Source: Candidatus Magasanikiibacteriota bacterium (lineage in GTDB: Bacteria; Patescibacteriota; Patescibacteriia; Magasanikbacterales; UBA922). Taken from it: a DNA stretch of 61,213 bases. The position numbers were made by a program, and so were the translations under genes. Below are positions 4,888-54,886 of this stretch, one piece after another. A model generated the notes under the pieces. It was not told where the DNA came from. It ran no database searches and was given only the letters and a program-made list of their open reading frames with translations. The stretch covers positions 1 through 61,213 of the forward strand of contig CAILTG010000097.1 in assembly GCA_903837125.1 (NCBI GenBank), given 5' to 3'. Within the stretch, counting starts at the first letter, position 1. Each line of letters begins with the position of its first letter.

Positions 4888-5352
4888 TTATTTAATGTCT
4901 AATATCTTATACTCCAACTCTCCTGCTGGCACAGTAATTTTAATTTTATCACCCTTTTTTTTACCCAAAAAAGCGTTGCCTAAAGGAGATTCATTGGAAA
5001 TTTTTCCTTTCAAGGGATTAGCCTCTTGCGGACCAACAATTATGTACTCCTTTTCTAAATCTTTAATCAAAACCTTGATAGTGGAACCAATAGTAACTAC
5101 ATCACCTTTTCCAGAAATAGCAATTATTTCTGAATTATCAATAATTTTATTTAGTTCCCCCACCCGACTTTTGGCCCAAGCCATATCTTCACGCGCGGTT
5201 TGGTACTCAGCGTTTTCTGACAAATCACCCATTTGTTTAGCTTCATCTATTCTTTTAGCTAAAGCGGTAATTTTTTCCTCTTTAAGTTGCTTTAATTCAG
5301 CATTAAGTTCATTAAGCTTGTCTTGAGACATGTATTGTGTTTGAACGGTCAT
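4888..5352 (-). CDS. greA: transcription elongation factor GreA
   Basis: 154 aa with a coiled-coil carrying GDLSENAEYQTARED plus a C-terminal FKBP-like domain. Confidence 0.9.
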   Translation of the reverse strand: MTVQTQYMSQDKLNELNAELKQLKEEKITALAKRIDEAKQMGDLSENAEYQTAREDMAWAKSRVGELNKIIDNSEIIAISGKGDVVTIGSTIKVLIKDLEKEYIIVGPQEANPLKGKISNESPLGNAFLGKKKGDKIKITVPAGELEYKILDIK

Positions 5353-16621: not shown

Positions 16622-18418
16622 CTAATAACCACGCGTCACGAAGGGAATCATTGCTAGGGTTTCACGTTCAGGACCACAAAGCGTCCAGATTGGTGCCAAA
16701 CGGCCATCCAATAAAGCTGCAGTGGCTGGCTCACCTCTTTTGTAAAGTCCTATAGCTTTTTTACGTAACACATTTATTCGATGAGCAATTACTGAAGGTA
16801 TTTCTGGTACTACTTCATTTAAAAAATCAAAAAACTTTTCACTTTCCATTTTCAGCCAATCAATTTTTTGAAGTTCTTCACCCCAATTAGTTTCCTGTAA
16901 TTTTTTTACCACCTCCGGACTAGGCATTTTTTTTAACCTTTCAAAGGCTAAAACTGCTACAGGATTATTTACATAAGCTTCAGCATCAACTTTAGGTACT
17001 CCTTCAAACAAATCTTGTTCCACTATACCTTTAGCTGGATACAGAGTTGCTAATAATTTAGCTTCACTTTTAGAAAACTTTTCCGAACGGCGAACACCTT
17101 GTACAATACCATGAGCCAAATCCACGTCTGTTGACAAAGTTGGCGAATCAGGGAATACATTAAAACCCCTAGCTCGATCAAATGGTCCATTTTCTCTTGA
17201 AGTAACAGCAATTACACTTTCATCATGATCACTATAGGGATATTTTTTTCTAGAACCATCTTTGTTAAAATTATGCAAATATCCACTATAAGTATTTGCC
17301 AAGACAATCATAACTCTTTGTTTTAATTCTCCCTGTTTTTCTTTTCCATAGACTCCAGGAAAAATTCGCAATATCTTGTCTCTGATAATTCTGGTAGCCT
17401 TACCGTCATCGGCCATTTCTTTTAGGCGAGTCCAAAACAAAATTGTACTTTCTTTATAATTAGAACGATAATCAATATCAAAATGATGTTTCTCAAATAA
17501 GTGCATCAAATCACCACTGTCTTCTTCCAAAAATGACTCAGTGGACAAAATTTTTCCTTCTTCGGCAAGATTATGTAAAATTTCATGTGAATAACCATGT
17601 TTTTTTACATTCTCATCTTCCAAACACTCATTTTTTTCTAATCCCATATACATAAAACCAGTATGAGGATCAAAAGAAGTTTGAACTGAAGCTACTCTTT
17701 TTTTACCATGATATTTTTGCATTACATAGTCTTCAATTGCTGCTTGAATAACTTTCTTTCTTTTCACTTCTGCCATTAAACCTGCATCTTCAGGTGAACC
17801 AGTTAAAGCTTCTTTTTTAACAATTTCTTTCCCGCCTGCAGCACAAGCCACATGGCTGTCATAAACTTCATTTATTACATCAACATTTTCAAAAACTCCA
17901 TCTAATAAACTCGAAAACTCACCCTCATCCAAATAATCTGGCTGATTAGCATCCCTGTTTGGTACTACTTCTGGCAAATCTCCTGCTGGAGTTTTAATAG
18001 AATTTCCATGCAAACCCATGGTTAATTTTGTAATTATTCTGCCATCAATACATAAAACCCACTTAGGCAAATCAAGAGGAAAAAGACTTCTTTTTAATTC
18101 AATTATTTCTCTAATTTCTGGAGATTGGATATCTTTTAAACGTTCCTCTCGAGAATAAAAAAACTGCCAAAGTTTAAAATATAGTCCTGCTAATTTTTTT
18201 TTGGCTTCAGCCTCACCTGCTTGTTCATAAGTATCCTGATGCAACTTTACAATTGCCTCTAAATAATTATCAAGCTGTTTTTTTATACCTGGCTCAATTT
18301 CAGACATTTCATCTCTCAACGGTTCTAAAAGTTCAAGAAAACGAAGCCCCTGCTCGTGGGCATCAATTTGACGTGATGCATGAACTATACTCGGATCACT
18401 GGGTCCTGCGTCTCTCAT
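16622..18418 (-). CDS. large hypothetical protein (598 aa) with a beta-carbonic-anhydrase-like CxDxR ... HxxC motif pair
   Basis: Long uninterrupted ORF 10 nt after atpC. It contains LCIDGRI (C123, D125, R127) and SHVACAAGG (H189, C192). No family was confidently recognised. Confidence 0.8.
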   Translation of the reverse strand: MRDAGPSDPSIVHASRQIDAHEQGLRFLELLEPLRDEMSEIEPGIKKQLDNYLEAIVKLHQDTYEQAGEAEAKKKLAGLYFKLWQFFYSREERLKDIQSPEIREIIELKRSLFPLDLPKWVLCIDGRIITKLTMGLHGNSIKTPAGDLPEVVPNRDANQPDYLDEGEFSSLLDGVFENVDVINEVYDSHVACAAGGKEIVKKEALTGSPEDAGLMAEVKRKKVIQAAIEDYVMQKYHGKKRVASVQTSFDPHTGFMYMGLEKNECLEDENVKKHGYSHEILHNLAEEGKILSTESFLEEDSGDLMHLFEKHHFDIDYRSNYKESTILFWTRLKEMADDGKATRIIRDKILRIFPGVYGKEKQGELKQRVMIVLANTYSGYLHNFNKDGSRKKYPYSDHDESVIAVTSRENGPFDRARGFNVFPDSPTLSTDVDLAHGIVQGVRRSEKFSKSEAKLLATLYPAKGIVEQDLFEGVPKVDAEAYVNNPVAVLAFERLKKMPSPEVVKKLQETNWGEELQKIDWLKMESEKFFDFLNEVVPEIPSVIAHRINVLRKKAIGLYKRGEPATAALLDGRLAPIWTLCGPERETLAMIPFVTRGY

Positions 18419-26036: not shown

Positions 26037-26137
26037 AATTCACCTAATTGTCTAATTCACCTAATAAAATTCTCAATGTCAAATTTTTTGTTTGGTTATT
26101 TGTCATTTTATTAGAAATTAGGTGAATTAGGTGAATT
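26037..26137. repeat. inverted array of the 12-mer AATTCACCTAAT in the atpZ-atpB spacer
   Basis: Two direct copies (26037-26048, 26054-26065) face two inverted copies (26117-26128, 26126-26137). Confidence 0.75.
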
Positions 26138-26161
26138 AGAAATTTATAAACTGTTGTTTTA

Positions 26162-26419
26162 TTATTTCGTATTTAATTCCTTATATTCTTTTCCGTATTC
26201 TTTCGCTTTTTTGTAAATAAGTTTGCCCGAAACCAACGCTGCCAAGACAAAAGCCAAAATTGTAAACCACGGACTCATGTTATATTTTTTATCTAACCAC
26301 TGGCCAATCAGTACGAAAACGATTACCGGCACCGCAATACTTGCCCCAAAATCACCAGTAATCCGAAATCCCAATAACATGTTTTTTCTACTCTTGGGAT
26401 CAGTTGGTAATAGTGACAT
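26162..26419 (-). CDS. AtpZ/AtpI-like small membrane protein (first gene of the atp operon)
   Basis: 85 aa with two TM helices and a pattern LGFRITGDFGASIAVPV...GQWLDKKY like the AtpZ/AtpI family. It sits upstream of atpB. Confidence 0.7.
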   Translation of the reverse strand: MSLLPTDPKSRKNMLLGFRITGDFGASIAVPVIVFVLIGQWLDKKYNMSPWFTILAFVLAALVSGKLIYKKAKEYGKEYKELNTK

Positions 26420-26440: not shown

Positions 26441-26469
26441 ATTCTACACGTTTTTTGAACCAAGGTCAA
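26441..26469 (-). promoter_or_regulatory. predicted atp operon promoter
   Basis: The minus strand reads TTGACC, 17 nt, TAGAAT, with TG two nt upstream of the -10. The -10 ends 21 nt before the atpZ ATG. Confidence 0.55.
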
Positions 26470-26609
26470 GAGTAATTTTTATTTGAGGTGTGAATAAACC
26501 CGGCTACACTAAAAAAGTTACGTCGGACAAGGTTGTAGCCTGGGTTGAGCAAAATAATGATGTATTAATAAATTAGTGTTATTTGTGTTTTTATTTGTGG
26601 AAAAAAAGC

Positions 26610-26638
26610 TTGACAAAAGCCTTATTTTGTGCTAAGGT
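26610..26638 (+). promoter_or_regulatory. cassette A promoter
   Basis: Perfect TTGACA (26610-26615), a 17-nt spacer ending in TGC (extended -10), then TAAGGT (26633-26638). Confidence 0.55.
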
Positions 26639-26644
26639 CAGAAT

Positions 26645-26663
26645 ACGCGATTTCCGCGTGGTT
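26645..26663 (+). promoter_or_regulatory. cassette A conserved 5' palindrome (operator or 5'-terminal stem-loop)
   Basis: ACGCGATTTCCGCGTGGTT starts 6 nt after the -10. The ACGCG/CGCGT arms match the equivalent element in cassette B. Confidence 0.5.
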
Positions 26664-26691
26664 GTGTGCCTTTCTTTCAGGGAGAATGTCC

Positions 26692-27186
26692 ATGAAAAAG
26701 CCCCGAACCACCACCCCCCCCCGGACCCCGGAGCCGATCTTCAAGGGCACGTTCAAGTGTGCCGACGGCACCGTGGCTCTCGTCCTGGCGTTCGTGTCCA
26801 AGTACGCGACGCACAATGAGATGCCGGACAAAACGCAGGTCCTGCGGGCGATCAAGGAGGCGAGGTGCTCGATCGGTCCCTTGTCGGCCCAGAAGTTCCG
26901 TGACAACAGGGCGGCTGTCCCGTCCGACTTCTTCAAGGATGGGTTCCACTTCCCCGCCGCGTTGCGCGACGACGGAAGGTCGTGGACCCACCTGACCAAG
27001 CTGGACGGCCCGTGGGTGGAGCACGGCGGCGGACTCGGCGACGCGGTCCACAGCGGCGTGCTCTTCGTTCGATTCCTCGACGAGCTCGATGGGGAGGGCT
27101 GCGACCTCCTCGTCATCGACGAGAGAGATCCGGCGCTCGTCCTCGCCCCCATCGCCGACCCGTTGCCCGCGTCCGTCCCGACGTAG
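26692..27186 (+). CDS. GC-rich hypothetical protein A (164 aa)
   Basis: The ATG lies 7 nt after SD AGGGAG (26679-26684). Almost every codon ends in G or C. The protein is MKKPRTTTPPRTPEPIFKGTFKCADGTVALV... and matches no family I recognise. TAG stop at 27184-27186. Confidence 0.8.
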   Translation: MKKPRTTTPPRTPEPIFKGTFKCADGTVALVLAFVSKYATHNEMPDKTQVLRAIKEARCSIGPLSAQKFRDNRAAVPSDFFKDGFHFPAALRDDGRSWTHLTKLDGPWVEHGGGLGDAVHSGVLFVRFLDELDGEGCDLLVIDERDPALVLAPIADPLPASVPT

Positions 27187-27211
27187 GCCCCGACCCCGCG
27201 ACCTCAAGTCG

Positions 27212-27334
27212 CTCCACAGTACGCCTCCCGGCGTACGGCAGGTGTGGAGCGCGAGACGCGTTCCTGTTCTTTGTACCTGGGAGCTCCTGCCGCTCCCGAC
27301 CATAATCATTTTAAAAGCTTGAAATGATTTAGAA
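27212..27334 (+). ncRNA. cassette A conserved structured 3' element
   Basis: The outer stem CTCCACA/TGTGGAG encloses GTACGCC/GGCGTAC. It is followed by hairpin CGCG-AGA-CGCG, GTTCC, and hairpin GGGAGC/GCTCCC with a loop containing TCCTGC. The element ends in the block CCATAATCATTTTAAAAGCTTGAAATGATTTAGAA. Confidence 0.5.
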
Positions 27335-27373
27335 CAAAAAACCTTTGTAGAAATACGAGGGTTTTTTGTTTTT
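27335..27373 (+). terminator. cassette A intrinsic terminator
   Basis: A-tract, then a ~14-bp stem including G-U pairs with a GAAA loop, then TTTTTTGTTTTT. Confidence 0.65.
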
Positions 27374-27380
27374 ATGTCTC

Positions 27381-27409
27381 TTGACATTTCCCATTTTTTC
27401 CGCTACCCT
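27381..27409 (+). promoter_or_regulatory. cassette B promoter
   Basis: Perfect TTGACA (27381-27386), 17-nt spacer, TACCCT (27404-27409). The geometry is the same as in cassette A. Confidence 0.5.
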
Positions 27410-27415
27410 AAATTC

Positions 27416-27435
27416 ACGCGAAATTCCGCGTGGTT
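27416..27435 (+). promoter_or_regulatory. cassette B conserved 5' palindrome
   Basis: ACGCGAAATTCCGCGTGGTT starts 6 nt after the -10. With the preceding C it forms the near-perfect 18-bp palindrome CACGCGAAATTCCGCGTG. Confidence 0.5.
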
Positions 27436-27460
27436 TTTTGGTATTCATCAGGAGGGTTCC

Positions 27461-27952
27461 ATGAGAATCACGTTCAACGTGGAAGACGACAAGGGGCGGA
27501 AGGACGGCGAAAGGTTCGAAATCTTCGCCATCCAGATCAGGAACGAGTTCGGCGACCCGGACCTGAACAGGATTGTGCTCTGCCGCGACGAGGCGGAGTG
27601 CAGACGGGTCCTCGAGGCGCCTGTCGCCAAGGACACCCGCAACTGGGGCCTCCTGCCGGAGCAGTACAGCCTGCGCCCGGCGACCAAGCAGGAGATCCAG
27701 GCACTGACCCCCGATTCGAACCTCGGGACCGTGGTCTCGTGCTACCTGCTCAACGTGATGCTCGACTGGCCGTCCGAGCAGCAGGCAGGACACCACTTCA
27801 TCAGGCACGTACGTCACCTCGCGGACGGGAGCGTCGTCCACGTGCCGGACCCCAAGCCGTACCTGGCGCCGTGGGTCGTCGCCGAGGCCCCGACGTCGAC
27901 GAACCTGACGGAGGACCCGTACGACCGCGGTGCCTGGCAACCCGACCTCTAA
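27461..27952 (+). CDS. GC-rich hypothetical protein B (163 aa)
   Basis: The ATG lies 4 nt after SD GGAGGG (27451-27456), and the frame is GC3-saturated. The protein is MRITFNVEDDKGRKDGERFEIFAIQIRNEFGDPDL... with a His-rich patch HHFIRHVRH. No family recognised. Confidence 0.8.
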   Translation: MRITFNVEDDKGRKDGERFEIFAIQIRNEFGDPDLNRIVLCRDEAECRRVLEAPVAKDTRNWGLLPEQYSLRPATKQEIQALTPDSNLGTVVSCYLLNVMLDWPSEQQAGHHFIRHVRHLADGSVVHVPDPKPYLAPWVVAEAPTSTNLTEDPYDRGAWQPDL

Positions 27953-27960
27953 CAGGTTGC

Positions 27961-28085
27961 CTCCACAGTTCCCGCCTCACGGCGAGACGCAGGTGTGGAG
28001 CGCGACCAAGTCGTGTTCCATTCGTTCCTTGACGGGTTCCTGCACCCCGTCCATAATCATTTTAAAAGTTTGAAATGATTTAGAA
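27961..28085 (+). ncRNA. cassette B conserved structured 3' element
   Basis: Same architecture as in A. The outer stem CTCCACA/TGTGGAG encloses CGCC/GGCG, followed by CGAC-CAA-GTCG, GTTCC, and GACGGG/CCCGTC with a loop containing TCCTGC. The final block CCATAATCATTTTAAAAGTTTGAAATGATTTAGAA is 34/35 identical to A. Confidence 0.5.
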
Positions 28086-28119
28086 AACAAAACCCACCAA
28101 ATAAGGTGGGTTTTGTTTT
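28084..28119. terminator. cassette B bidirectional intrinsic terminator
   Basis: Perfect 15-bp stem AAAACAAAACCCACC / GGTGGGTTTTGTTTT, with an A-tract on one side and a T-tract on the other. Confidence 0.8.
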
Positions 28120-28137: not shown

Positions 28138-28174
28138 ATTAAGATTAAGATTGTGTCTCGTTCTTAATCTTAAT
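28138..28174 (-). terminator. hairpin overlapping the tatD stop codon
   Basis: 13-bp stem ATTAAGATTAAGA / TCTTAATCTTAAT built from reiterated AAGATT units. Confidence 0.55.
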
Positions 28175-29036
28175 ATTTTATCTTCGTAAACAATCGCAAC
28201 GTATTCTCCAAAGTTATTTTTTGTATTTCTTCAATTGATTGATGTTTAATTTTAGCAATTTCTTTAACAACTTCCTCCACCATCCATGGTTCACAACGTT
28301 GTCCACGATAAGCTTGAGGTGCTAAATAGGGTGCATCGGTTTCTACTAAAATTCTGTCTAATGGACATTTTTGTACTACTTCTAACAAATCTAAAGTTGG
28401 CTGAGGATTGGTTTTACGTGCGGGAAAAGTAACTACTCCTGTAAAACCTAAGTAATATCCCATTGCTAAAAATTTTTCTGCCTGTGTCCAGTTTCCAGAG
28501 TAACAATGCACTACACCTGGCGGAATTTCCAATTTCCAATTTCCAATTTCCAATTTCAACATGTCTAAAGTTTCATCATAAGCATCTCTAACATGAATTA
28601 CCAAAGGCAAACTATGCTTAATCGCAAAATTATATTGCTTAATAAAAATTTCTTTTTGTTTTGATAATATTTTTTCTTTATCTAGACCTTCTGGTAAATG
28701 ATATAATTCTAATCCGCACTCCCCTACTGCAATAACTTTTTCTGACTTAGCGAGTTCTGCATAAAAATTATCGTCAAAATCTTCTTCGCGCGACAAAAAA
28801 GACGATTCTTCTTCATCAACTTGCGTGGCGTGTAGATGAATGGGGTGCAAGCCAATCGTTGCGTAAACATTTGGATACTTTTCTGCCAATTCAACTGCTT
28901 TCTGGCTAGTTTCCATCTGTGTACCAACAGTGTTCATCACCAAACCAACCTTGTTACAGCGTTCTAACACACTGTCACGGTCTGCGTCATATCCTTTAAA
29001 TTGTAAGTGACAATGACTATCTATTAACATAAACAA
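28170..29036 (-). CDS. tatD: TatD family metal-dependent hydrolase/DNase
   Basis: 288 aa with the IDSHCHL N-terminal motif and conserved His/Asp/Glu ligand pattern (VHCYSG, ETDAPYL). Confidence 0.9.
   Translation of the reverse strand: MFMLIDSHCHLQFKGYDADRDSVLERCNKVGLVMNTVGTQMETSQKAVELAEKYPNVYATIGLHPIHLHATQVDEEESSFLSREEDFDDNFYAELAKSEKVIAVGECGLELYHLPEGLDKEKILSKQKEIFIKQYNFAIKHSLPLVIHVRDAYDETLDMLKLEIGNWKLEIPPGVVHCYSGNWTQAEKFLAMGYYLGFTGVVTFPARKTNPQPTLDLLEVVQKCPLDRILVETDAPYLAPQAYRGQRCEPWMVEEVVKEIAKIKHQSIEEIQKITLENTLRLFTKIKY
28524..28558. repeat. heptanucleotide tandem repeat (AATTTCC) x4 plus one imperfect copy, inside tatD
   Basis: Read directly from the sequence. On the coding strand it encodes LKLEIGNWKLEI. 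Confidence 0.9.
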
Positions 29037-29147
29037 ATAATTTACAATTCACAATTTTCAATTTACAATAAATTTTCAATTAAACAATTTTCAATGGTAA
29101 TTGGAAATTGGTAATTGATTGAAAATTGTAAATTGATCATTGAAAAT
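29037..29147. repeat. array of (C/A)AATTTTCAAT motifs upstream of tatD
   Basis: Three direct copies (29052, 29070, 29085) and two inverted copies ATTGAAAATT (29118, 29139). AATTGGAAATTGG at about 29100 is the reverse complement of the tatD heptamer repeat. Confidence 0.7.
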
Positions 29148-31202
29148 TCAATTCAATTTCCCTCCCCACTCAACTACAGTAAAACCAGTTCGCTGAGGGG
29201 TAATAAAATTAGGTTCCTTAACTGTTACAAAATTATCCAATGGCTGATAATCCATAAACACGCGAATTACTTTGTCTGGTTTGGGACTAACAGTTAACGG
29301 TGCCATTTGGTCAAATTCTGCTTGTGGCAAGAATGTCACAAACACATAAGGTCTAACTTCTAATTTTGGCTGCCAAAATTCTAGAAAATCAGTAGTTTCT
29401 TTTTCATTCAAACCTTGAATCGCCAAAATCTGTTTCATTTTTGTCCCCACTTCTTCACGTTTCAAAACATAACCATAATCCGGAGTGGCAAAATCATTGG
29501 CGTTGCCTTCCCAAAATAAATAAGGATAAGTTTGTTTGTCAGCAAAATTATAAATATCACTATTTGGTGTGGCAAAAACATTCCAACCATCGTTATAACT
29601 TGGTTCAGTCTTAGTTAAACCACCAGTTGGCGCCACTTGTACATTAACTTTCATTGATTTAGTTGGATACAAATAAATCACCGGCTTGCCACATTCGGCT
29701 TGAGGCAAAATTGAGGCTTTTTGATAAACACGCCAATTACCCCACTGATCTTTCCAAAAGAAAACCGGATTACTATTAACAAATTTAACAAAATTATTAT
29801 GATTTCTCTCAACTAATAATTTTTGGTACTGATCATAAGGTAAGGTATTTTGTTCTTCTGGAGTAACCAAACTAGAGTCTGGTAAACTACTTTTGCTAAA
29901 CATGTCCTCATAAAATACATTAGTAACTTTATCAGATAATTCATAAATTGATTCAGCCTTACCAGTCTTACCAATTTCCGTTAATTTCTCTTCACTAAAC
30001 CAACCATTATTTCCTAAAGTTGAATTTAACTTTTCAGAACCAATTATTTCTGTGCAGTTTGGATCACGTCCACCGCAACCACCATTGGATCCCCAGGCAA
30101 CAAAACTATCTGAACTCTTGATATTTATTCCTTTATTCCATTTAATATCTACCTTAAAAGTTTCCGGATACATATTTTTAGACAGTGCCGGATTCCCATC
30201 ATATTTAAGAAAGTATGGTTGCAAATTATAAACAAAGACTGAGCCATTTTGTTGCAATAAATAAAAACAGTTATTTTTATATTTTAAATTTTTAAGATCA
30301 GGACCTTGGTCAAAATGAGATAAATTAATAAAATCAGTAGTAGAAACTAAACCTGCTATTGGATCGGTAATGCCAAAATCACCTAAATTACCAATAATTG
30401 CCCAACTATTACTAAGTCGAGGATTAAGATAATATAAATTACCATAACTATTATCTGTCAAAGAAATTTTAAGGGGTGGTTCCCAAGGTGTAGTACTAAC
30501 TCCCAAAAATCCTCCAAAAACTGGAAAACTTTTATATTGTATTTTATCTTGATCAGATAAAGTAAAATTAGTTGTATAACTGGTTGGATTATTAATTAAA
30601 TTATCTAAGCCATAACTAGTAACAAAACCTGTTGTGTTAGAAACATCACTGTCTGTTACTAATTTAACCAACAAATTTGCCGATTGATCATAAAATACCA
30701 GGCTAGGGGTATAACCGCTCCAGGGACCATCGGGAAACAAATCTGGCACTACCACATAAAAAATTGGCTGATTATTTAAATTTTTTATTTTACCAACCTC
30801 ATAAAAAATAATCTGAGGTTCTTGTGTTGAACAACCTACCCCAGTATTTTGACTATCTGGCTTACAAGTCTTTTTTAAATCAAGCATCCAATTTAAAATC
30901 TTTTGATAAGTAGGAAATAATTTGTTAAGTAACTGATTAGTTTGATCATCAGAAACTCTTTTAGCAATTAATTGCCATTCAATAGCTAATTTTTTGTTTG
31001 GTAAATTATTTAAAATATATGAATAATCCTTAATTTCCGGTGTGCTAGTAGTTGTTTGTTCTACAGTATCCGTAGTAGTAACGGTTGTAGAGTTATTGAC
31101 TACTTTTATTTGTTTATTCCCGTCAAATATACTACAACCCGAAAGCAAAAAAACAGTTACTATTAATAAACTTACTGACAAGGTCAATTTCATTCTAGAC
31201 AT
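29148..31202 (-). CDS. large lipoprotein of unknown function (684 aa)
   Basis: Signal peptide with lipobox LLSGC, followed by a T-rich linker. No recognisable catalytic motif. Confidence 0.75.
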   Translation of the reverse strand: MSRMKLTLSVSLLIVTVFLLSGCSIFDGNKQIKVVNNSTTVTTTDTVEQTTTSTPEIKDYSYILNNLPNKKLAIEWQLIAKRVSDDQTNQLLNKLFPTYQKILNWMLDLKKTCKPDSQNTGVGCSTQEPQIIFYEVGKIKNLNNQPIFYVVVPDLFPDGPWSGYTPSLVFYDQSANLLVKLVTDSDVSNTTGFVTSYGLDNLINNPTSYTTNFTLSDQDKIQYKSFPVFGGFLGVSTTPWEPPLKISLTDNSYGNLYYLNPRLSNSWAIIGNLGDFGITDPIAGLVSTTDFINLSHFDQGPDLKNLKYKNNCFYLLQQNGSVFVYNLQPYFLKYDGNPALSKNMYPETFKVDIKWNKGINIKSSDSFVAWGSNGGCGGRDPNCTEIIGSEKLNSTLGNNGWFSEEKLTEIGKTGKAESIYELSDKVTNVFYEDMFSKSSLPDSSLVTPEEQNTLPYDQYQKLLVERNHNNFVKFVNSNPVFFWKDQWGNWRVYQKASILPQAECGKPVIYLYPTKSMKVNVQVAPTGGLTKTEPSYNDGWNVFATPNSDIYNFADKQTYPYLFWEGNANDFATPDYGYVLKREEVGTKMKQILAIQGLNEKETTDFLEFWQPKLEVRPYVFVTFLPQAEFDQMAPLTVSPKPDKVIRVFMDYQPLDNFVTVKEPNFITPQRTGFTVVEWGGKLN

Positions 31203-54388: not shown

Positions 54389-54886
54389 ATGCAAGTTCCC
54401 TACCGCAAACCAGGCAAATACATGATACAAAAAAGTGACCCACTTATCACCGGGGCTAAACTTACTGAACTTGAAAAAGAATTAACTAAATTAAAAAAAA
54501 TCCGACCAGGAGCTGCAGCCGAAGTAAGTCGTTTAGCTGAAATGGGAGATTTTTCTGAAAATGTAGAATACCAGTTAGCTAAAGGACGTTTACGAGGAAT
54601 TAATAATGCAATTTTTAAAATAGCCAATCAACTTAATCAGGCAGTAGTGATTAAACCGCAAACACAAACCAATGAAGTACAAATCGGCCACATAGTTACC
54701 ATTGAAACTGAAAACGGACCAAAAACTTATCAGATACTTGGTTCTGCAGAAACGAATCCTGGAACTGGAACAATTTCCCATAACTCTCCTCTTGGCTCGG
54801 CCTTAATGGATAAAAAAGTAGGAGACGTAATAAAAATAAAACTGACAAATAAAGAAATAGAATACAAAATAATTGAAATAAAATAA
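54389..54886 (+). CDS. GreA/GreB family transcription elongation factor (second paralogue)
   Basis: 165 aa with GDFSENVEYQLAKGRL and the C-terminal domain motif SPLGSALMDKKVGD. Confidence 0.88.
   Translation: MQVPYRKPGKYMIQKSDPLITGAKLTELEKELTKLKKIRPGAAAEVSRLAEMGDFSENVEYQLAKGRLRGINNAIFKIANQLNQAVVIKPQTQTNEVQIGHIVTIETENGPKTYQILGSAETNPGTGTISHNSPLGSALMDKKVGDVIKIKLTNKEIEYKIIEIK

Follow-up and report, generated by a model that had tools for sequence, protein, structure and literature searches.

Structured 3′ untranslated regions (UTRs) of bacterial mRNAs include the stabilising repetitive extragenic palindromes and bacterial interspersed mosaic elements (REP/BIME), regions that give rise to 3′UTR-derived small RNAs (sRNAs), and the icaR 3′ UTR with its UCCCCUG motif directed against the Shine-Dalgarno (SD) sequence. 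We analysed a 61,213-nt contig of a Candidatus Magasanikiibacteriota bacterium (CAILTG010000097.1, assembly GCA_903837125.1; the whole stretch is called the window), in which two unrelated open reading frames (ORFs) are each followed on the + strand by a multi-hairpin tail of about 160 bases: tail A at 27212-27373 and tail B at 27961-28119. Other repeated structures beside unrelated genes are known from phages. Promoter-early stem-loop (PeSL) motifs of T4-type phages flank ORFans and mediate shuffling and mini-circle formation (PMC2839356, PMC4122927), and morons of temperate phages are autonomous units of promoter, one ORF and intrinsic terminator set within an operon-like array, between two of its genes (PMC3594210). 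By analogy, the tail is best filed as a variant of cassette-boundary and 3′-UTR elements that are already known in kind, and the units (cassettes) that carry it are, on the same comparison, moron-like.

Comparison with known elements

As in PeSLs, a sigma-70-like promoter and a terminator-type stem-loop form a conserved composite that recurs at the borders of unrelated ORFans, although the tops of the terminator stems differ here. In both cases the composite is a plausible crossover point for module exchange, and a contig spanning exactly one repeat interval exists for our locus (L085, see below). PeSLs, however, occur in dozens of copies in the hyperplastic region of T4-type phages, whereas the window holds two copies in a spacer of a bacterial core chromosome, within a housekeeping context, and pattern scans of IMG/VR returned none. 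Unlike in PeSLs, the terminator stems vary, while an additional array of hairpins (H1-H4) and a 5′ UTR hairpin are conserved. Mini-circles are documented for PeSLs; here, contig L085 alone might represent one. Like morons, both cassettes are independent units with a base composition very different from that of their neighbours. In contrast to morons, they are not surrounded by a prophage (no phage genes in the window, no phage matches), their promoter is native to the host lineage, and they have a structured tail in common, which is no moron feature.

The hairpins of the tail lie between stop codon and terminator, as in other structured 3′ UTRs, and its conserved C/U-rich loop UCCUGC complements an SD-like sequence, as in icaR-type 3′ UTRs. 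REP/BIME elements are present in tens to hundreds of copies per genome; the DNA searched contains two copies of the tail in 61 kb and none in 1.35 Mb of related loci. In contrast to icaR, the predicted pairing between 5′ and 3′ UTRs of the cassettes is no better than chance. Integron attC sites also come to mind, since there, too, an unrelated ORF precedes a repeat that is conserved more in structure than in sequence and has a two-box hairpin with unpaired spacer. But the attC core boxes are absent: the outer stem reads CTCCACA/TGTGGAG, and every GTT in the tails precedes pyrimidines or TGA. We therefore rejected attC identity. An integron array, in which promoterless cassettes lie beside attI and the tyrosine integrase IntI, was likewise rejected, since the window encodes no IntI, none of its ~60 ORFs contains an integrase domain, and each cassette has its own TTGACA promoter. 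Finally, the two mutually exclusive, isoenergetic folds (H1 and H2) may be compared with the terminator-antiterminator pairs of riboswitches and attenuators, which lie upstream of the gene they control; the tail is found downstream of its gene and matches no aptamer model.

Structure of the two tails

Comparison of both copies supports the view that the tail is a structured + strand element under shape-preserving constraint. The copies lie exactly 751 nt apart and have exact blocks of 9, 17 and 34/35 nt in common. All sequence strings listed in an earlier note on this DNA were found at their positions. The string CTCCACAGT begins at 27212 and 27961, and GCAGGTGTGGAGCGCGA at 27238 and 27989 (two matches vs 0.01 expected). 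An AT-rich block at 27300-27334 and 28051-28085 is found twice against 0.00 expected; as described earlier, it is identical at 34 of 35 positions, and its sole substitution (C/T) falls in the tetraloop of an 11-bp hairpin. Conservation around this block spans 49 nt at 92%.

Helix H1 occupies 27212-27249 in tail A and 27961-28000 in tail B. Its outer stem CTCCACA/TGTGGAG, correctly recognised before as lying within identical strings, is an invariant 7 bp in both copies. It encloses a nested hairpin (27219-27236 in A, 27968-27988 in B) and, on the 3′ side, unpaired bases that read GGCAGG in the internal loop of A (27237-27242) and GCAGG in B (27989-27993). The inner hairpin is less divergent than had been claimed: its CGCC/GGCG core is identical, and what sets B apart is an internal loop (CC/A) together with a single pair changed on both sides (A-U to U-G).

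The next helix, H2, is formed by GGAGCGCG-AGA-CGCGUUCC in tail A (27246-27264) and by GGAGCGCGAC-CAA-GUCGUGUUCC in the predicted fold of tail B (27997-28019); the minimum-energy folds give it 8 bp in the former and 10-12 bp in the latter. A small hairpin of differing yet pairing sequence had been proposed here. Pairing at this place stands, and the longer H2 helix is the better-supported form; the 4-bp versions CGCG-AGA-CGCG (A) and CGAC-CAA-GTCG (B) are different registers of a conserved GCGCGA block and do not correspond. The neighbouring GTTCC is conserved because it pairs in the extended helix. H2, which is part of the minimum-energy fold of A, and the outer stem of H1 use the same GGAG and hence exclude each other. 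The alternative folds are isoenergetic, with -43.8 vs -43.7 kcal/mol in one copy and -38.9 vs -39.1 kcal/mol in the other. A terminator scan flagged H2 of tail A owing to the T-rich linker behind it (27265-27278).

H3 reads GGGAGC-UCCUGCC-GCUCCC in tail A (27279-27297) and GACGGG-UUCCUGCAC-CCCGUC in tail B (28031-28051). This confirms the swapped 6-bp hairpin with TCCTGC in both loops, as four of its six pairs are changed on both sides. The loop complements the unpaired bases of H1, with CCUGCC matching GGCAGG in A and CCUGC matching GCAGG in B; of this candidate pseudoknot, the sixth pair exists in A, while B has lost both of its bases. Judged from the sequence, the fold is most likely locked by a tertiary loop-to-loop contact between the conserved GCAGG and CCUGC of the loop, which would account for a conserved loop on a swapped stem.

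Within the AT block follows H4 (27304-27329 in A, 28055-28080 in B), a helix of 11 bp with one G-U pair, in a block that contains the sequence CATAAT. Each copy is closed by a predicted bidirectional intrinsic terminator (27332-27373, -21.2 kcal/mol, in A; 28084-28119, -22.8 kcal/mol, in B; folding z -6.7 each). The stem tops of the two are unrelated in sequence, in agreement with the earlier description. Tail A lies between the two cassettes and tail B at the convergent junction with tatD, its terminator ending 50 nt from the tatD stop codon (28170).

We compared the two tails in a structure-aware alignment of 140 columns. All 37 pairs in five helices are standard in both copies (five doubly changed, one changed on one side, none broken), and in this sense the earlier claim of structure conserved beyond sequence holds. 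Sliding the partners by 1-3 columns reduced pairing from 100% to 35-44%. Four of the five double changes fall in H3 and the remaining one in the inner hairpin. Clear covariation is therefore found in H3, a single inner-hairpin pair and the terminator tops, and not in the three compensatory stems announced before. When each variable segment was shuffled, a perfect 6-bp hairpin arose in 1.0-1.5% of cases, and at the position of H3 in 0.25-0.35%. Since H3 occurs in both copies beside one and the same block and shares its loop core between them, chance does not account for it.

On the + strand, the tails including the terminator fold far better than shuffled sequences (z -8.0 for A, -7.9 for B), and the core without terminator still reaches z -3.7 and -4.6. 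The bodies of the preceding ORFs, which are equally GC-rich, are not unusually structured (z -0.95 for A and -1.5 for B, + strand), so the fold is a property of the tail and not of high GC content. Read on the - strand, the core gives weaker values (z -3.0 for A, -1.9 for B), and A-C mismatches replace the G-U pairs of H2, H4 and the inner part of H1. Together, these features point to a + strand RNA. Conservation of the tail via a translated extension is ruled out, because the insertions and deletions between the blocks are not multiples of three.

Searches for homologues

No Rfam 15 model matched anywhere in the window at gathering thresholds, consistent with the earlier opinion that the tail represents no known RNA class. 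When E-values up to 10 were allowed, only terminator-type sRNA and leader models appeared, with 15-38 bits vs thresholds of 42-200, and ARAGORN detected neither a tRNA nor a tmRNA. A covariance model built from both copies retrieved only its two training copies from the window plus 79 related Magasanikbacteria loci (1.35 Mb). Scans of IMG/VR and JGI metagenomes with exact or degenerate patterns matched neither the AT block nor the H1 block, and a scan of GTDB genomes for the AT block likewise returned nothing. The sole blastn/tblastn match among phages and plasmids is a 57-nt terminator-like sequence of Bacillus plasmids located downstream of arsR, which we judged to be a chance similarity and rejected as a homologue. 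By these sequence searches the tail, with only two copies in the data covered, is lineage-restricted and previously undescribed. The earlier note had named a lack of further homologues, combined with a lack of statistical support for covariation, as evidence against the element; in the searched sets, the former half of this applies.

The cassettes and their genomic context

The tails belong to two tandem + strand units inserted between atpI (26162-26419, - strand) and tatD (28170-29036, - strand). Both cassettes stand head-on to their neighbours in what is otherwise the spacer between tatD and the atp operon. Each consists of a TTGACA promoter, a 5′-proximal hairpin, a hairpin over the SD sequence and start codon, an ORFan of ~164 codons and the tail with its terminator; the coordinates of these parts were verified by script. 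The GC content of the window is 0.29-0.43 per kb with the single exception of kb 27001-28000 (0.62), and nearly all window genes are on the - strand, with a GC content at third codon positions (GC3) of 0.15-0.40. Relatives of TatD identify the host chromosome as that of a Candidatus Magasanikbacteria member of the candidate phyla radiation (CPR/Patescibacteria) with 33% GC. We sought close relatives of the host to fix the borders of the insertion and found none, the nearest TatD relative anywhere being only 69-70% identical (top identity 70%). A Pfam scan of the ~60 window ORFs revealed no integrase, transposase, HUH, reverse transcriptase or phage gene, only housekeeping functions such as aminoacyl-tRNA synthetases, MreB/MreC, PBP2, ATP synthase, SUF/Nif-type Fe-S proteins, and ABC and MFS transporters.

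The ORFs themselves deviate strongly from this background. ORF A (26692-27186, + strand, 164 aa, GC 0.66) and ORF B (27461-27952, + strand, 163 aa, GC 0.65) are nearly equal in length and show no sequence relation. The GC3 of both is 0.90 vs ~0.23 in the host, and nearly all their codons end in C or G (TTC 15/15, GAC 25/29, AAG 13/15), opposite to the host preference (TTT 176/191, AAA 253/303). The high-GC stretch begins exactly at each ATG and ends at H3. Pfam, PADLOC and the phage and plasmid collections gave no match for either ORF, and neither a search of 5.8 billion clusters nor phmmer against 1.84 billion representatives yielded a homologue. The only match of ORF B is its own locus in ENA/Logan assemblies, and both ORFs are without relative among 15 billion proteins. 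Single-sequence AlphaFold models reached a pLDDT of 34 and 42 and are unusable. Two - strand ORFs over the tails (26677-27387 and 27329-27940) were dismissed as mechanical products of the high GC content, as their GC distribution over codon positions is atypical. ORF A contains a C9 homopolymer in codons 8-11 (26714-26722), whose sequence makes it a candidate for slipped-strand on/off switching; short contigs of this region from metagenomes begin just downstream of the tract, at 26754.

The promoter of cassette A (26610-26638, + strand) was read from the sequence as TTGACA, 17 nt and TAAGGT with a TG upstream of the –10 region. A consensus scan missed it, its –10 region scoring just 3/6. It is nevertheless identical at 24 of 30 positions to the promoter at the same place in one relative (L018), and its –10 region has GCTA in common with five relatives; the cassette promoters are orthologous to those that fill this spacer in relatives. 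Cassette B is preceded by TTGACA, 17 nt and TACCCT (27381-27409, + strand). In contig L085, which comes from a second sample, an A to C change at 27405 affects the second base of this putative –10 region; it may be a promoter-down variant, or else the –10 region of cassette B was wrongly assigned. Downstream of the promoters, predicted folds contain a 5′-proximal hairpin conserved between the cassettes, ACGCG-AUUUC-CGCGU in A (26645-26659, + strand) and CACGCG-AAAUUC-CGCGUG in B (27415-27432, + strand). A further predicted hairpin covers the SD sequence (GGGAG) and AUG of cassette A (26675-26697, + strand). It occupies the same position in cassette B (27443-27468) with a different sequence, the arms being UUUCA...UGAAA in one cassette and AUUC.AUCAGG...UGAGAAU in the other. 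Its folding z is modest (-1.5 and -2.2), and in this folding model the sequestration of SD and AUG in both cassettes may represent translational control.

The order of tatD and then atpI is conserved in about 60 loci of related genomes, with a spacer of ~100 nt to 3 kb. In seven of them (L006, L009, L010, L012, L018, L029 and L058) the spacer contains a small gene on the opposite strand. These genes have a TTGACA promoter, an AGGAGG site and a GC content 10-20 points above that of their genome, they often encode membrane proteins, and they end in two to six hairpins. Their promoters follow a conserved pattern TTGACA...GCTAnnnT, all of them with GCTA at the start of the –10 region. The gene of L018 ends as the cassettes of the window do, in a GC hairpin, an AT hairpin and a terminator, and the spacers of L029 and L058 share one 75-aa membrane protein. 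Islands of GC3-rich ORFs (0.64-0.78) were also found in related genomes of 0.37-0.43 GC (L011 5224-6237, L064 886-1317, L022 1677-2117, L010 19688-20164, L006 20495-20725, L015 875-1249 and L028 530-868). Foreign-looking genes are accordingly no rarity in the lineage. The six island loci scanned yielded no Rfam RNA, and the island ORFs of L064 and L022 look homologous. By codon usage ORFs A and B are foreign to the host, while the 5′ scaffold is, on sequence comparison, native to the lineage, because the promoters of the slot and the order of the tail resemble those of relatives.

Recovery of the locus in other assemblies

The locus itself is real, as it is seen in independent assemblies of two samples besides the source of the window. 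For the BUCK21-1 sample SAMEA6872967, the ENA and Logan assemblies contain positions 26754-27987 and 27060-27969 at 99.9-100% identity. In SAMEA6872970, likewise from BUCK21-1, positions 27335-28048 recur as contig L085 (714 nt) with three single-nucleotide differences, none of them in the tail. This contig corresponds exactly to the stretch between the two AT blocks, which is explained equally well by repeat-induced assembly breaks or by recombination over the repeat interval.

Proposed function and alternatives

Tentatively, and with less confidence than doubt, we propose from the sequence, as the most economical explanation, that the tails are a cis-acting + strand 3′-UTR module that defines, protects and insulates the mRNA 3′ end and doubles as a conserved cassette boundary, much like PeSL motifs of T4-type phages. 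Among the candidate roles named in the earlier note, which also included a 3′UTR-derived sRNA, the context favours stability and boundary functions; the tail is one part of an expression scaffold duplicated around two unrelated ORFans. In cis, the tail would fix the 3′ end of the mRNA and block 3′ exonucleases. It would also terminate transcription in both directions and keep the cassettes, the convergent tatD and the downstream atp transcripts apart; such bidirectional termination is suggested by the A- and T-tracts on either side of both terminators, and relatives, too, stack hairpins at the tatD-atpI junction. Together with the promoter module, the tail could then serve as a conserved boundary for the exchange or duplication of unrelated ORFs.

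Several observations weigh against this proposal. A plain exonuclease barrier needs neither the invariant unpaired bases GCAGG, UCCUGC, CCAU and UAGAA nor an AT block identical at 34 of 35 positions and two isoenergetic folds. The unpaired bases, the AT hairpin and the bistability hint at specific recognition or switching, and because these three features exceed a simple barrier, we retained an sRNA, a switch and a protein-binding site as alternatives. The candidate pseudoknot draws its support from invariant bases only. In addition, 10 of 500 column shuffles, run on only two sequences, reached the observed covariation, the formal significance of which is out of reach with two copies. The GC-rich half of the tail, similar in composition to the foreign ORFs, may also have been imported with them and not been shaped by the host.

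The likeliest competitor regards the tail as nothing but a recombination scaffold of the PeSL type, whose blocks are kept identical by homologous recombination or gene conversion and serve as crossover points for ORF swaps, with the hairpins being ordinary terminator- or REP-like features without further role. Identical blocks do alternate with unalignable segments and unrelated ORFs, the distance of exactly 751 nt between the copies fits, a contig such as L085 would result from repeat collapse or an excised circle, and PeSLs set a precedent for promoter-plus-stem-loop motifs beside ORFans. Nevertheless we think it rather unlikely, as there are just two copies, the window provides no phage context, the terminator stems, unlike those of PeSLs, are not conserved, and same-position hairpins with a conserved loop within non-identical segments are left unexplained. 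Both explanations, the cis-acting module and the scaffold, are compatible with each other. A trans-acting sRNA, whether cleaved off the 3′ end of the mRNA or initiated at the CATAAT of the AT block, seems unlikely. Its seed would be the UCCUGC loop and AAGYUUGAAAUGAUUUAGAA, and its 3′ end the variable terminator. sRNAs usually combine conservation of a seed-like block with variation in the stem of the terminator behind it, as the tails do. CATAAT is invariant and, in copy B, preceded by TTGACG at 17 nt (28029-28057, 10/12 promoter match), and the C/U-rich UCCUG is complementary to SD-like CAGGA(G). Copy A, however, has no –35 element at the corresponding place, and a start inside the AT block would cut off the 5′ arm of the perfectly conserved H4. 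Anti-SD pairing with the cassettes' own 5′ UTRs was rejected, since the duplex energies are no better than those of shuffles.

The bistability could instead mark a conditional switch, riboswitch-like or protein-controlled, in which H1, perhaps locked by GCAGG:CCUGC, competes with the extended H2 and the U-rich linker to decide between early stop and run-on through H3, H4 and the terminator. In either copy the alternative folds are equal in energy, the two sequences that compete for GGAG are conserved (CUCC of CTCCACAGT and UUCC of GTTCC), H2 with its linker was flagged as terminator-like, and the conserved loop on the swapped H3 stem suggests a tertiary contact. We regard such a switch as improbable all the same: the element does not precede its gene, a strong terminator comes after it in any case, the U-tract behind H2 is poor, no Rfam aptamer scores even weakly, and equal energies in two sequences are possibly a coincidence. 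Still less probable is a site acting at the DNA level, be it a folded single strand recombined as in attC or HUH systems or a AATCATTT-N10-AAATGATT operator for a dimeric DNA-binding protein. In its favour, the order of unrelated ORF and structured repeat is cassette-like, H1 has attC-like dimensions (7-bp outer box, unpaired spacer, 7-bp inner box, small loop), and the AT block is a near-perfect inverted repeat. Against this stand the absence of an RYYYAAC/GTTRRRY box pair, of any integrase, transposase or HUH gene among the ORFs scanned, the promoter that each cassette has of its own, and the G-U pairs and weaker - strand folds that favour a + strand RNA. That the resemblance of the tails is chance or an assembly artefact is hardly credible. 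A single locus is known and short contigs of the region break near the repeats, but assemblies of two further samples are 99.6-100% identical, and exact blocks of 17 and 26 nt were found twice vs 0.00-0.01 expected.

An extension of the cis-acting module is a long shot: the tatD-atp spacer might be a dedicated expression slot that captures foreign genes between a native module of promoter and 5′ hairpin and a 3′ RNA, pseudoknotted and bistable, that a host factor recognises. Such a factor would act on the 3′ module in processing or stabilising foreign high-GC mRNAs, or in cassette exchange. If true, the two tails would be the first integrase-independent capture boundary of an integron- or PeSL-like kind in a cellular genome. 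Gene acquisition and expression in CPR bacteria are poorly known, because their tiny, streamlined genomes belong to organisms that cannot be grown alone. If the tail were needed to express or exchange such genes, it would offer a handle on gene capture in this group and could be used as a compact stabiliser-and-insulator part; if it only protects 3′ ends, it is an ordinary lineage-restricted UTR structure. The extreme-GC ORFans in a native CPR expression slot are at least as notable as the tail.

Neighbouring features of the window

The atp operon has a promoter of its own (TTGACC-17-TAGAAT, 26469-26441, - strand), divergent from cassette A, with a hairpin nearby at 26496-26546 (- strand context 26441-26546). 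Two GreA/GreB-type genes are found within the 61 kb, at 4888-5352 (- strand) and 54389-54886 (+ strand), the latter being among the very few + strand genes of the window. Two large ORFs of 684 and 598 aa (29148-31202 and 16622-18418) without Pfam domain lie beside conserved operons. The tatD frame contains a perfect heptamer array (AATTTCC x4.9, 28524-28557), the spacer upstream of tatD (29039-29148) holds more repeats of 7, 14 and 18 nt, and AATTAGGTG is repeated 2.7 times between atpI and atpB (26116-26139).

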